A DNA stretch of 64,000 bases from Vulcanimicrobiota bacterium (GTDB taxonomy: Bacteria; Vulcanimicrobiota; Vulcanimicrobiia; Vulcanimicrobiales; Vulcanimicrobiaceae): contig CAWHWQ010000001.1 in NCBI GenBank assembly GCA_963833095.1, forward strand, positions 128,001-192,000, given 5' to 3'. Positions 51,714 through 59,978 of this stretch are shown in pieces. Position numbers and translations under genes: made by a program. Position 1 is the first letter of the stretch. Every line of letters begins with the position of its first letter. Below the pieces are notes generated by a model. That model saw nothing but the letters and a program-made list of their open reading frames with translations, made no database searches and was not told the origin of the DNA.

Positions 51714-52196
51714 CTAGAGGGACAGGATCTCCGAGAGCGCTGTGTCGTTTGCAGCCCTTTCACGCAGCACCGCATAAATTGTGGATGCTGCAAAGCCCAA
51801 ACGCTCGAGGCGACGCGCAGCGGCGGGGTAGCTTGGCGCCGCGCTGCGAAGGAGCGCATCGAACGCACGTATGCAGCGCGAACGCTCGCCTTCATCGAGC
51901 GCATCGACGGCGGCCTGCGCCTCGTCGCGGCCGATACCCTTGCGGATTAGGTCGCCGACCAGGCGCATATCGCCCAGCGCCTTGCGCGTGCGCTCAACGT
52001 AGAGTTGCGCAAAGAGACGATCGTCGAGAAAGCGCTCGGCCTTGCAACGAGCGACGACACCAGTAATGGTGTCGTCGTCGAAGCCTTTGCGCTCGAGGCG
52101 CTCCCAGAGCTGCGCCTGCGTCAACCGCCTCCGTGCCAACATCCCCAGAGCGCACGCATAGGCGGTTCGTTCAGCCGCATCGTGCGGCTTGCTCAT
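51714..52196 (-). CDS. recX: Regulatory protein RecX
   Basis: [20 protein letters not shown]; coupled to recA stop. Confidence 0.85.
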
Positions 52197-53245
52197 CACT
52201 CTTCCGTGGCGGCGACGACGGCGCCGATGCTGTGGCCATTCTTTGAAACCGCGTTGGTAAGAGCCTCGCGGATCTTCGTTTCGATCTCGCCGGCCATATC
52301 GAGGTGTTCTTCCAGAAATGCTTTGGCGTTCTCGCGCCCTTGTCCAATGCGTTGCTCGCCGTAGGTGTACCACGAACCGCTCTTGCCGACGATGTTCTGT
52401 TCGAGCGCGACATCGAGGATCGAGCCCATCTTCGAGATGCCCCGACCATAGGTGATATCGAATTCGGCTTGCCGGAACGGCGGCGCCACCTTGTTCTTGA
52501 CGACCTTGGCGCGCGTGCGTGAACCGACCACATCTTGCCCGACCTTGATCTGTTCGAGCTTGCGTACGTCGACGCGGATCGAGGCATAGAATTTGAGCGC
52601 GCGGCCGCCCGAGGTCGTCTCGGGACTTCCAAACATCACGCCGACCTTCTCACGCAGCTGGTTGATAAAGATCATGACGGCCTTGCTGCGCGAGATCGCG
52701 GCGGTGAGCTTGCGCAGCGCTTGCGACATCAAGCGCGCTTGCAGGCCGACGTGCGCATCGCCCATGTCGCCCTCGAGCTCGGCCTTGGTCACGAGCGCCG
52801 CCACCGAGTCGACGACGATCACGTCGACCGCGTTGCTGCGCGTGAGCATTTCGGCGATCTCGAGCGCCTGTTCGCCGGTATCGGGTTGCGAGACGAGCAA
52901 ATTGTCCAGATCGACACCGAGCGCGGCGGCATAATTCGGATCGAGTGCGTGCTCGACATCGATGAAAGCGGCGGTGCCGCCGTTCTTTTGCGCCTCGGCG
53001 ATTGCATGCAGCGCGAGGGTCGTCTTACCGCTTGATTCGGGACCGTAGATCTCGACGATACGGCCGCGCGGATATCCGCCGACGCCGAGCGCGAGATCGA
53101 GTGCGATCGATCCGCTGGGCACAACCTCGAACGCCATGCGTTCCTGGAAGTCGCCCATTTTCATGATCGATCCCTTACCAAATTGCCGCTCGATCTGGGC
53201 GAGGGCATTGCCCAGGGCGATTGCTCGTTCGTCTTGCGCTGCCAT
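52196..53245 (-). CDS. recA: Recombinase RecA
   Basis: [42 protein letters not shown]. Confidence 0.99.
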
Positions 53246-53286
53246 TCTCTCTCCTCTAGTAATCGTTGCTTTCATATACCATCACG

Positions 53287-53317
53287 TTGTCAGGCGCTGG
53301 TGACAAGTGTATGTCAC
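53287..53317. promoter_or_regulatory. Overlapping TGTCA/TGACA palindromes upstream of recA
   Basis: TTGTCA-N8-TGACAA (53287-53306) and GTGACA-N6-TGTCAC (53300-53317). Confidence 0.5.
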
Positions 53318-54246
53318 ACTTTCACGGAATCCGGGGCCTCATCGAAAAGGGCTTGGGTGAATTCGGCGGCGACAAATGGGCGCAGGGCATCGGGAGTCTC
53401 GCCCAGGCCGATGAATTTGATCGGAATCTCCAGCGTGTCGACAATGGCCACGAGCACGCCGCCCTTTGCCGTCGAATCGAGTTTGGTGACCACGACGCCC
53501 GTGAGCTGCGTCGTTTCATTAAAGAGCCGCGCCTGCGAAATCGCGTTCTGCCCGGTCGTGCCGTCGAGCACCAGTAACGTTTCATCGGGCGCGCGACCAA
53601 GTTCGCGCTCGATCACGCGGCGAACTTTTTTGAGTTCTTCCATCAAATTCGTTTTGGTTTGCAGCCGCCCGGCGGTGTCGACCAAGATCACATCGACGCC
53701 GCGCGCTTTTCCGGCTTTGATGCCGTCGAAGATCACCGAGGCGGGGTCGGCGCCTTCGGCACCACGCACGATCTCACTCTTGGAGCGATCGGCCCAAATC
53801 GCCAATTGTTCGGCGGCTGCGGCGCGGAATGTATCCCCGGCGACCAAGAGCACGCGTTTGCCTTCGGCGCGAAGTCGCGTTGCGAGCTTGCCGATCGTCG
53901 TCGTCTTGCCGCTCCCGTTCACGCCGACGACAAGAACCACCGACGGCGGATCGCTGCTCAGTTGTAACTCTGCGCCGGGAATCGTCAAAAACTTTTCGAC
54001 GTCGCGGTGGAATCGCGCAACCGCCTGATCGGTCGTAGCCCAGGCCTCTTGCTTGGCAACGGTCTTGAGGCCCTCGATGATCTTAGCCGTCGTCGGAACC
54101 CCGAAGTCGCCCATGATGAGCAGCTCCTCGAGGTCGTCCCAAAACTCCGGCGTGAGCGGCTTGCGGGCGAGGCCCAGGTTCTGTACCGCGGCGAAGGTGT
54201 CGCGGGCCTTGCCAAGGGACGCCTTGAGTCGTTGAAACCAGCTCAC
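53314..54246 (-). CDS. ftsY: SRP receptor FtsY
   Basis: GVNGSGKTTTIGKL, DTFRAAA, DTAGRL, TKLDSTAKGG. Confidence 0.98.
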   Translation of the reverse strand: MSWFQRLKASLGKARDTFAAVQNLGLARKPLTPEFWDDLEELLIMGDFGVPTTAKIIEGLKTVAKQEAWATTDQAVARFHRDVEKFLTIPGAELQLSSDPPSVVLVVGVNGSGKTTTIGKLATRLRAEGKRVLLVAGDTFRAAAAEQLAIWADRSKSEIVRGAEGADPASVIFDGIKAGKARGVDVILVDTAGRLQTKTNLMEELKKVRRVIERELGRAPDETLLVLDGTTGQNAISQARLFNETTQLTGVVVTKLDSTAKGGVLVAIVDTLEIPIKFIGLGETPDALRPFVAAEFTQALFDEAPDSVKV

Positions 54247-54302
54247 GGACCCTTTCCTTTCCTACCCAAGCATCGAACTCCTGTTCGCTAGTGCCAGCAT
54301 TT

Positions 54303-54826
54303 TTGTCACCCTGAGGTGCAAGCCCGCTAGGGCGAGCCTCGAAGGGTCGACCCCGGAGAGGTGGTCATTGCAGTTTACGCTTCGCCCTCAGCCTTCTGCG
54401 GTGTGGCCAACTAGCAACGACCTGAAACGCCGCCGACAATAAAGTCGGACAATGCCAGCAGTAAGATACGCACTACTTTCGTGCGTGACGACGGCAATCG
54501 ATCGTGATTTTTCTTTGGGACATTTCCCACCGATCAGCGTACCAGCCAAGCCGGCCGCCGACTACAGCATTCCCGTTATAACATAAGAGCGTTTCAGGTT
54601 GGTAAGCCGTCCCGTCGAACACGTCGTCGCTATACACCGATAAATCAGACGATGATGCTTGGAACGAGAGAATGATCAGAACGGGCCGCTATGAGACTCG
54701 TTGCCACACCGAGCACGCCCGACCACTTCTTAACGACCACTACGAAACTATCTCGAAACATTTGATCGCCTTCACTCCGCAACACCCTTCGAGGCTCGCG
54801 CTAACGCGCGCACCTCAGTGTGACAA
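54303..54826. mobile_element. Cassette bounded by ~45-bp TTGTCA...TGACAA inverted repeats (family A)
   Basis: Arms 54303-54347 and 54784-54826, including a perfect 16 bp and a 16/17 bp segment. Confidence 0.75.
54361..54740 (-). ncRNA. Candidate multi-stem structured RNA of unknown family
   Basis: Nested stems 54361-69/54732-40, 54399-407/54703-11, 54420-30/54589-99 plus inner hairpins; G-U pairs favour minus strand. Confidence 0.4.
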
Positions 54827-54837
54827 GTTGCGGTGCT

Positions 54838-54873
54838 CCCTCGACTACGCTTCGCTACGCTCGGGATCACAAG
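54838..54873 (+). repeat. Solo family A arm
   Basis: 34/36 identical to 11840-11875 in dnaE2. Confidence 0.85.
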
Positions 54874-54874
54874 G

Positions 54875-55378
54875 TTAGGCAACGGGGTCCAGGCCCGTGA
54901 TGCTGGAGGCCTCCATCTTTACCCACTGCGGGGCGGCGCCGTCGACCCGCACCGGATACTCGAAAGTGACGTTGGGCTGCCCGATTTGATCGCGCATGAT
55001 ATCGGCCAACCGTCCTTCGATGAACACGCGCCGGCCCGCCCCGAACGGTGCGTGTCCAGGCGCGAAGTGAATCTCGAAGACGGCTGCCGAGGCCGAAAAC
55101 GCGTGCACGCTCCCGCCGAAACAATCGTGCACCGCCATCTTGAGCGCAGCGACGATTTGCGAGAAGAGCGTGTCATCGACGCGCGCGTGGCGTTCGTCAA
55201 AGCAGCGTTCGCGATCGATCACGTAGCGCGTCGGCTCGACGCCGTCGATGAATTCGACCCTAAACTGACGACCTGAGATGTGCATCTCGAGGTTCCCGCC
55301 CATTTTGGTCAAGCGCACTTCGCGAATCCAGTCCTTGTGATCGCGCATCGTCTTGGAAAGCCAGTTCTTCTTCCACAC
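54875..55378 (-). CDS. Hypothetical protein
   Basis: 167-aa ORF starting 2 nt after the upstream gene; no recognised motif. Confidence 0.65.
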   Translation of the reverse strand: MWKKNWLSKTMRDHKDWIREVRLTKMGGNLEMHISGRQFRVEFIDGVEPTRYVIDRERCFDERHARVDDTLFSQIVAALKMAVHDCFGGSVHAFSASAAVFEIHFAPGHAPFGAGRRVFIEGRLADIMRDQIGQPNVTFEYPVRVDGAAPQWVKMEASSITGLDPVA

Positions 55379-57931: not shown

Positions 57932-58765
57932 TTATTTTCGGCCGCTTCGGGGCAGGCGGCGGGCTTCCGCAAATACTTCTGTTTGATCGTCGGGTCGTCT
58001 TCGCGATAGCCAGGTCGTCGCGCAGCTCGCGCAGGCGTTGCGCAAGTGGATCACGGCCTGGGCGTGGATCTGCGAGACCCGCGACTCCGAGACGCCCAGA
58101 GCGCCCTTGATTTCCTTGAGCGTCTGGCCTTCGAAGTAGTAGAGCGGATCACGGTGCGCTCTTGCGGCGGCAGCGCGTCGACCGCGCCGACCAGTCGGCC
58201 CGTGACTTCGCGCGACTCGACCTCGCTCGTGACGTCGTTGCCGTCGTCCTTGAGCGTGTCGACCAGCGGGATCTCGTAGCCGCGTTCGTTGGGCAGAAAC
58301 TCCTCGAGCGAGAGCACCGCGGTGCCGCGAACGCGCTGCATCAGCTGATCGAACTCTCTGCATCGTCAGGCCCAGCCGCGCCGCGACTTCTTCTTCGGTC
58401 GGCGCGCGGCCGAGTCTCGATCTCGAGTTCTTGATAGGTGCGCTCGAGCTCGCGGGCGCGTTGACGCACGGCGCGCGGAACCCAATCGAGCGAGCGCAGG
58501 GCGTCGAGAATAGCGCCGTTGATGCGGGTGATCGCGTACGTCTCGAACTTGACTCCGCGCGCGTCGTCGTACTTTTCGATCGCGTCGATCAAACCGAGAA
58601 TACCGTCGTTGATCAAATCGTTGATCTCGACGTTCGGGGGCAGGTTCACCGAGATTCGACCGGCGACGTACTTGACCAAGATGCAAGTACTTGTGCACGA
58701 TCTCTTCCCGTGAGAGTTCGGCGCCGCCGATAATGTAGCGCCGTGGCTCGCGGCTCAGCCTTCAT
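57932..58765 (-). CDS. fliA: Flagellar sigma factor FliA/SigD/WhiG (frameshifted)
   Basis: [47 protein letters not shown]. Confidence 0.93.
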
Positions 58766-58879: not shown

Positions 58880-59978
58880 TAAGCCTTCGCGCCGGACGTC
58901 AGCGAGGACCAGAATGCCGCGAGATTTCGTCGAGCGGCGCGACGCGATCGACCAGCCCGGCGACCGCGGCGGCTCGCGGCATTCCGTAGACGACGCACGT
59001 CTTCTCGTCTTGCCCGACCACATAACCGCCGCGCGCTTTAAGACGCTTGAGCCCTTTGACGCCGTCCTGCCCCATGCCGGTCAGGATGACGCCGACCGAA
59101 AGCGGGCCGTACATATTGGCAACTTGCTCGGTCATGAAGTCGACGCTCGGAACATGCAGCGACGAACCGTCGTCGCGGATGCAGTCGACTTCGACCTCAC
59201 CCGTCGCGCGGCGACGCAGCTCGCACCTGCTTGCCCGACGGGATCGACGAGCGCCGTGCCTGTCTCGAGGATCATGCCGTTGGCTGCTTCGAGCACGCGC
59301 ATTTTGCTCTACGCGTTCAGGCGATCGGCAAGCGGGCGCGTGAAGCCGATCGGCATGTGCTGAACGATGACGATCGGCGTCGGGAAGTTTCCGGGAAGAT
59401 CGGCATGACGTGCGAGAGTGCGACCGGACCGCCGGTCGACGTACCGATCGCGACGCATTCGTAGTTTCCGCGTGCGCGACGCGTCGCGCGCAACCGGCGG
59501 CGGCGCGATGATCCGCGGAGCTTGCTCGATCGGCGGCGCGGGCGTCGCACGATCGGTGAGCCGGCTGACGCGCCGCGCCGCGCAAGGTGCGGATTTTGGC
59601 GACCAGATCGCGCGCCACTTCGATGATGTTCGTGTACGCTGCATCCGGTTTCGCGATGAAATCGACCGCGCCGAGTTCGAGCGCGCGGAACGTCGTCTCG
59701 GCGCCCTCGCGCGTGAGCGAACTGCACATGATGATCGGCACGCGATGATGCGCGACGATGTTACGCACGGCTTCGAGACCGCCCATTCCCGGCATCTCGA
59801 CGTCCATCGTGATGACGTCGGGATTGATCTGCTGGGCCTTGGTGATCGCCTCTTCGCCGGTACGCGCGGTGGCGATCACGCGGATGTCCGGCTCGTTTTC
59901 GACAATGTTCGTGATCGCTCGGCGCATGAACGCCGAGTCGTCGACCACCAAGACGTTGATCAATTCCCACGTTGACAT
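58880..59978 (-). CDS. cheB: Chemotaxis methylesterase CheB (frameshifted)
   Basis: VVDDSAFMR, GTSTGGP, VQHMP, PSVD, LTGMGQDG, VYGMP. Confidence 0.95.

Follow-up and report, generated by a model that had tools for sequence, protein, structure and literature searches.

The window, the whole 64,000-nt stretch of DNA analysed here, carries ftsY, recA and recX in a row on the minus strand, preceded by a conserved gene for a 167-aa hypothetical protein. Between the stop codon of this hypothetical gene and the leader region of ftsY, which is conserved, lies an insertion of ~582 bp, whose limits follow from alignment with congener loci and contigs. The features of the locus and of the inserted block are:

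51714–52373, minus strand: recX, after recA (Pfam RecX_HTH1)
52196–53275, minus strand: recA, after ftsY (Pfam RecA)
53314–54246, minus strand: ftsY, flanking the insertion (Pfam SRP54)
54274–54287, no strand assigned: palindrome CGAAC-N4-GTTCG, in the flank outside the insert, before ftsY-recA-recX
~54293–54874, no strand assigned: the whole lineage-specific insertion, ~582 bp
54303–54345, plus strand: left hairpin, TGTC-tagged, rarer ‘GAGGTGC’ subtype, facing inward
54346–54785, no strand assigned: interior, 440 bp, single-copy, 53% G+C, without an ORF or a detected relative
54361–54369/54732–54740: stem with one G-U pair on the minus strand
54399–54407/54703–54711: perfect 9-bp stem
54420–54430/54589–54599: perfect 11-bp stem
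54420–54599, minus strand: best-folding sub-domain, 180 nt, closed by the 11-bp stem, of marginal significance
54451–54462/54561–54571 and 54489–54495/54554–54560: further stems, with three small hairpins
54786–54826, minus strand: right hairpin, TGTC-tagged, same subtype as the left one, facing inward (DNA fold z −3.6)
54838–54871, minus strand: third hairpin, of the commonest subtype in the genome, its tag altered by one base
54875–55378, minus strand: conserved 167-aa hypothetical gene, its stop codon abutting the insertion

The 167-aa hypothetical protein is 75–96% identical among congeners and matches no Pfam or NCBIfam family. We detected ftsY in 16 of 17 congeners, and seven of the corresponding slots between the hypothetical gene and ftsY are empty, with only 50–87 bp separating the two genes; the two closest congeners (90–91% identity over the query) belong to this group. 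Seven other slots hold an amidohydrolase gene and one a zinc-type dehydrogenase gene (gene-filled intervals at loci L006, L007, L009–L012, L017 and L018), with Pfam confirmation of the cargo at one amidohydrolase locus and at the zinc-type dehydrogenase locus. The remaining slot is unresolved. The block is missing from the ftsY site in all 15 congeners with both flanking genes seen. The slot is thus a variable cassette slot that carries different cargo in different species, and the cargo found in congeners (amidohydrolase and dehydrogenase genes) is unrelated to the block and has no hairpins. Contigs of related populations from the same samples join across the site with 35–36 other letters. 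Judged from these alignments, the block was inserted recently. The congener alignment reveals no target-site duplication at its ends, and no second copy of the whole cassette exists to show movement as a unit.

Contigs assembled from the short reads of four runs, all of a single study and possibly the source of the genome itself, reproduce the interior without indels and with one or two substitutions. Two of these cover the whole interior, with two substitutions, while runs X5 and X6 reach just the hairpin or the flank. Assembly error as the origin of the interior is ruled out by the complete lack of gaps in these contigs, and the stop codons of the interior are, for the same reason, not assembly errors. 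Elsewhere in the window, the ORFs read as fliA (58051–58679) and cheB (58899–59978) look frameshifted, as does uvrC at locus L021, probably through assembly indels in this genome.

The original prediction described an inverted-repeat cassette with REP-like ends, and this part of it held. Both pairs of inverted arms are present (54303–54319/54810–54826, 17 nt, 94%; 54322–54347/54784–54809, 26 nt, 88%), together with the third hairpin at 54838–54871, and the ends belong to a dispersed family of TGTC-tagged hairpins tied to small GIY-YIG nucleases. The terminal TGTC tag is found on the two inner hairpins and, with one change, on the third. Merely ~10 bp and ~3 bp of the insert lie outside the outermost hairpins. 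Genome-wide, the TGTC-tagged repeat has 116 motif matches compared to a single match in the reversed genome, and the ‘GAGGTGC’ subtype has 16 copies compared to none. The repeat favours intergenic sites. Its units are 34–55 nt long, with a rather long interrupted stem, a variable inner hairpin and no CCA tail.

Elsewhere in the genome, facing pairs of these hairpins surround short spacers, members of two multicopy spacer families (120–190 bp), a GIY-YIG gene and a GIY-YIG remnant. Family A consists of conserved spacers of 150–190 bp between facing hairpins, with 7 full and 2 partial copies at 88–95% identity to the reference copy (genome G000, C1:139684–139840, 509911–510066, 536827–536994 and 837183–837335; C4:258873–259033; C7:38724–38880; C8:6706–6895). 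It folds strongly on both strands (z −4.4 to −9.7 with RNA and −5.0 to −10.9 with DNA parameters) and, as a possible structured mobile element, makes a stronger candidate than the block at 54303–54873. Family B, with spacers of ~130 bp, gave 11 matches at 75–93% identity to its reference copy (G000, C1:425371–425506 and 438972–439095; C4:71972–72107; C5:313276–313411 and 572677–572809; six more elsewhere), and its folding is variable (z −5.6 to +0.9).

An intact small GIY-YIG gene lies between facing hairpins at C2:304940–305289 (protein at C2:304952–305242 in G000; PF01541, 56 bits, above the cut-off). The 3′ remnant of another such gene (C5:230493–230675, within the locus C5:230455–230733) sits between hairpins that, like those of the cassette, are of the rare subtype. 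Among related genomes, hairpins face inward on both sides of the nuclease gene in 15 of 19 loci. The end pattern of the cassette, at a spacing of 425–455 bp, encloses a GIY-YIG gene in 10 of its 15 matches in GTDB genomes (Alphaproteobacteria, Actinomycetota and one Candidatus Eremiobacteraeota record) and in three of five matches among 330 genomes of the family. Six viral matches to the end pattern have neither hairpin nor nuclease and were discarded. Intact nucleases accompanied by ‘GAGGTGC’ hairpins also occur in G004, G010, G011 and G015. These loci hint that the genus has two nuclease-hairpin subtypes. The local nuclease shares 32% identity with a canonical NTS-linked nuclease, and UPF0213 proteins are its nearest relatives of solved structure, so cleavage of the local hairpins is an extrapolation. 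Four unpublished genomes (G025, G048, G059 and G252) contribute only to negative tallies, to a nuclease tally and, in the case of G252, one rejected match.

Between these ends, the interior has the low G+C content and lacks the credible ORF that had been noted for it. At 53.2% G+C, compared to a genome mean of 61.9%, it lies below 99% of equal-sized genome windows (only 0.9% of 12,919 windows of 434 nt are as low). Each of the six frames contains 4–7 stops, and no frame shows sustained host-like codon scores. Stop density and frameshift tiling are those of shuffled sequence (P 0.40–0.83), and the length of open frame attainable with 0–3 frameshifts is likewise at shuffle level. Hydrophobic stretches are present in minus-strand frames, and two frameshifts tile 395 nt on the minus strand, as far as 40% of shuffles tile. 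A 71-aa open frame reached an Atlas recognition of 1698, compared to 2300 typical of real families, and has no viral relative that we could find. A degenerate long palindrome was rejected, since the two halves of the interior show no alignment in inverted orientation (P 0.30–0.68).

Searches of Rfam 15 gave no match (best E-values 7.2 and 8.9, far below gathering scores) and ARAGORN called no tRNA or tmRNA at the block, in agreement with the earlier remark that SRP, RNase P, tmRNA and intron signatures are missing. On the whole genome, which is 81% complete, ARAGORN called 41 tRNAs and no tmRNA. In retrons, a reverse transcriptase gene adjoins the msr-msd region; PF00078 was not found in this 81%-complete genome, and the neighbours of the block are ftsY and the 167-aa hypothetical gene.

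DNA relatives of the interior were absent from all 60 kin genomes searched, and 400 genomes of the phylum yielded only matches of 20–35 nt, in 15 genomes; the 12 of these that we inspected all lie inside unrelated reading frames and are chance. An exact 20-mer had no occurrence in GTDB genomes, and blastn against plasmids gave no match. A single 45-nt phage match, nine viral 18-mer matches and 119 metagenome loci containing the 9-bp stem pattern (19 of 64 parts scanned) were also rejected, the former two as chance and the last for showing no similarity beyond the pattern. A single-sequence covariance model of the best domain produced one weak match (24.5 bits) in 149 genomes, located in G002 antisense inside a housekeeping ORF read as phosphoglucosamine mutase, and it was dismissed. 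A covariation analysis with R-scape, as proposed originally, had no homologue to draw on, either in kin, in phylum genomes or from the covariance model.

At the protein level, the six frames gave nothing significant against Pfam, NCBIfam, PHROGs or plasmids, and three minus-strand frames found no relative among proteins of 79–256 aa in a set of 5.8 billion. Two minus-strand frames searched in 250 phylum genomes returned zero matches and one match, the latter in G113, antisense inside an ORF read as phosphoesterase, and attributed to chance. The alternative raised in the original prediction, a decayed membrane-protein gene starting at ATG 54761, thus found no protein relative, and both stop density and tiling are at shuffle level.

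Since the size of the interior suits a nuclease cassette, we searched directly for a nuclease remnant. Frameshift-aware scores stayed at shuffle level against 31 kin-type nucleases (P 0.11–0.25) and 18 canonical-type nucleases (P 0.18–0.86), and the true nuclease remnant scored 90 bits against 15. Similarity to nucleases at the DNA level was not significant under a dinucleotide null (P 0.09–0.33) or a genomic null (P 0.45–0.66); a pairwise DNA likeness, significant against mononucleotide shuffles only, disappeared with these nulls and was rejected. Nuclease-like words picked by eye occur on both strands and do not survive these nulls either. Simulated decay (30% substitutions and four indels) was detected in 93–100% of 15 controls, an optimistic rate because the controls are training-set genes.

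All stems named in the original prediction are present in the sequence, with their Watson-Crick parts located. The full 571 nt fold at z −4.64, which reflects the repeat arms, because the signal vanishes once they are removed: the interior folds at z −0.52 on the minus strand (31 of 100 shuffles fold as well) and −0.85 on the plus strand (21 of 100), or at −0.26 and −0.74 with DNA parameters. As a control, seven of seven family A spacers between like hairpins scored z −4.4 to −9.7. The interior as a whole is therefore not more structured than chance, and this unremarkable z-score is the outcome that had been named in advance as speaking against an RNA.

The perfect 11-bp and 9-bp stems are mildly unusual (equalled in 12–13 of 400 shuffles), and their nested sum is reached in 5 of 400. 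The sub-domain 54420–54599 folds as a multibranch structure (z −4.3 minus, −3.5 plus) that is equalled by one of 84 selection-matched shuffles, for which the closing stem could likewise be picked in hindsight; with this stem taken away, 10 of 84 do as well. On the minus strand, z is −3.2 for 54399–54711 and −2.2 for 54360–54742, and the segment 54600–54783 is less stably folded than its shuffles (z +1.4 to +1.7). Two variants bear on the structure. The substitution 54430 C>T, common to the four runs of that study, lies inside the 11-bp stem and gives an A-C mismatch on the minus strand and a U-G pair on the plus strand, a single event of weak weight; 54549 A>G sits in a loop. No sigma-70-like promoter or intrinsic terminator was found for the interior.

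Beside the insertion, which abuts it, the palindrome CGAAC-N4-GTTCG is kept in 17 of 17 ftsY loci of the genus (L002–L018). It is likely the LexA (SOS) box of the lineage, because three copies with one mismatch precede lexA (L550, 1780–1900), and it resembles the Firmicute and actinobacterial LexA consensus. The genome contains 13 copies, which is not above the 3–17 obtained with control patterns. Copies also precede ORFs resembling DNA-repair genes. If the palindrome is a LexA box, ftsY would fall under SOS control together with recA. Hairpin repeats also occur within ~40 bp of the box at C4:236739–236797 and C5:44908–45012; overall, three of 13 boxes have one nearby, which may reflect shared intergenic space alone. 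A limited literature search, from which absence from print does not follow, returned nothing that connects Eremiobacterota with LexA.

We give somewhat better than even credence to the following explanation: the block is a recent hairpin-bounded insertion, and its middle is foreign passenger DNA with no conserved RNA or protein function, captured by recombination at nuclease-cut hairpins. That the interior is likely passenger DNA and not a new RNA follows from its folding at shuffle level and from the lack of matches; this status draws on negative searches, in which the source of the interior was not found. The route of capture is proposed by analogy with the Ssn/NTS system (PMC11893778). A cognate small GIY-YIG nuclease would bind and nick the hairpins in single-stranded DNA, either incoming or on the lagging strand; the nicked ends could then recombine, and DNA between two facing hairpins would be swapped or taken up in one piece. 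On this model the interior would have arrived as a passenger of that kind, its few long stems mostly chance. Any effect on the host is predicted to come from the hairpins, which lie a short way upstream of the SOS-type box that precedes ftsY-recA-recX.

Other explanations were weighed against this one. It is unlikely that the interior represents a previously unknown structured RNA of ~300–380 nt on the minus strand, carried as cargo of the hairpin system. The nested perfect stems (5 of 400 shuffles), the sub-domain 54420–54599 with its z of −4.3 (equalled by one of 84 selection-matched shuffles) and the values of −3.2 and −2.2 for the two wider minus-strand segments would fit such an RNA, as would the lack of coding signal and the structured non-coding spacers that like hairpins carry elsewhere in the genome. 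However, the whole interior reaches only z −0.5, its part 54600–54783 does worse than shuffles, 10 of 84 shuffles equal the sub-domain once the closing stem is removed, and neither an Rfam match, a credible structural homologue in 149 genomes, a sigma-70-like promoter nor an intrinsic terminator was found. The in-stem variant 54430 C>T, one event, disrupts pairing within the 11-bp stem when the minus strand is read. The large minus-strand RNA of ~380 nt at the centre of the original prediction accordingly did not find support in the z-score of the interior, in relatives or in this variant; the small chance it retains is owed to the sub-domain 54420–54599. We are similarly doubtful of the fuller scenario in which a hairpin system with a GIY-YIG nuclease, related to Ssn, would have captured and moved an undescribed multibranched RNA (~300–380 nt, core 54420–54599) into the ftsY-recA-recX promoter region. 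Were the RNA reading true, a REP-type element would be spreading a large structured RNA, and a new RNA class would await characterisation.

A dead nuclease-hairpin element, its interior a heavily decayed GIY-YIG gene from an unsampled branch, has a comparably small chance of being correct. Size and end layout match those of nuclease cassettes (10 of 15 GTDB matches), a truncated nuclease lies between hairpins of the same subtype in this genome, the plus strand scores slightly above the minus strand in six of six settings against the kin-type profile, and motif-like words are discernible by eye. Against this stand frameshift-aware scores within the range of shuffles for both nuclease types, DNA similarity that is not significant under dinucleotide or genomic nulls, the detection of simulated decay in 93–100% of the 15 controls (an optimistic figure) and the nearly intact state of the adjoining hairpins. 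We hold it to be just as unlikely that the block did not move as a single unit and that hairpins settled independently on both sides of a foreign fragment already present in the slot. The repeat has 116 copies and prefers intergenic sites, the slot takes unrelated cargo without hairpins in congeners, and the right end carries two hairpins of different subtypes, all of which would suit separate arrivals. Yet both inner hairpins are of a rare subtype (16 of 116 copies), their inward orientation is exactly that seen at nuclease genes, and only ~10 bp and 3 bp of the insert extend beyond the outermost hairpins. Least probable of all is a small membrane-protein gene, broken only recently, on the minus strand from ATG 54761. 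Hydrophobic minus-strand stretches and the 395 nt tiled with two frameshifts suggested it, but 40% of shuffles tile as far, no match came from the minus frames among proteins of 79–256 aa or from six frames in plasmids, Pfam, NCBIfam or PHROGs, and the two minus frames had one antisense chance match in 250 phylum genomes. Furthermore, the 71-aa frame falls below the recognition value of real families (1698 compared to 2300), and short-read contigs without indels indicate that the stops are genuine.

Passenger DNA between hairpins, the reading we prefer, can be set beside several known systems. The large bacterial and housekeeping RNAs represented in Rfam include RNase P, SRP, tmRNA, OLE and HEARO. 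The interior falls into a comparable size range and shares an intergenic position and lower G+C, but it has no Rfam match at E ≤ 8 (best value 7.2 being far below gathering score) and, unlike housekeeping RNAs, is absent from the same site in congeners. REPINs, or REP doublets mobilised by RAYT, consist of two inverted hairpins around a spacer, an arrangement seen both in the block and in the two multicopy spacer families of this genome. In contrast to REPINs, the partner enzyme here is a GIY-YIG nuclease and not a HUH transposase, and the cassette spacer occurs only once, has three times the length and lacks strong folding. A limited search found no literature joining REPINs, cargo and GIY-YIG, which does not imply absence from print.

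REP elements have been linked to RAYT, and the CGTC/TGTC families (1–4) are characterised by stems of 8–9 bp, loops of 4–5 nt and a CCA tail, with DNA inserted between dimer partners noted (Di Nocera et al. 2013, PMC3733652). The local repeats share the terminal TGTC tag, intergenic dispersal and mostly facing dimers, and differ in their units of 34–55 nt, longer interrupted stem, inner hairpin and lack of a CCA tail.

The closest parallel is the Ssn/NTS system, whose nucleases belong to CDD cd10448. Ssn proteins cleave single-stranded DNA next to a hairpin of defined orientation and change the uptake of NTS-flanked DNA, and NTS-gene-NTS layouts around variable genes are reported as well (Chenal et al. 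2025, PMC11893778). Compared to what is described there, the local set shares an oriented hairpin that bears a 5′ YGTC tag and is dispersed in many copies (here 116), and the inverted copies that flank a single-domain GIY-YIG gene of ~95 aa (at C2 and at 15 of the 19 kin loci). The SRM pattern, in its published form, matches none of the three hairpins and nothing in 54250–54900, and its 16 genome matches lie outside the TGTC repeat family. Further differences are the divergence of the nuclease (32% identity to the NTS-linked one, with UPF0213 structures closest) and the cassette ends, which enclose non-coding orphan DNA in which no nuclease was detected. By these sequence features, the local hairpin-nuclease set has the Ssn/NTS layout and is not a strict member of that system. 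In summary, the ends are of a known kind in variant form, while the middle is unexplained but unremarkable and adds no new RNA. Under the preferred reading, the block is a modest example of GIY-YIG-linked hairpins around DNA unrelated to them, in a slot of variable content, and is in keeping with the notion that such nuclease-hairpin systems move cargo about in addition to themselves.
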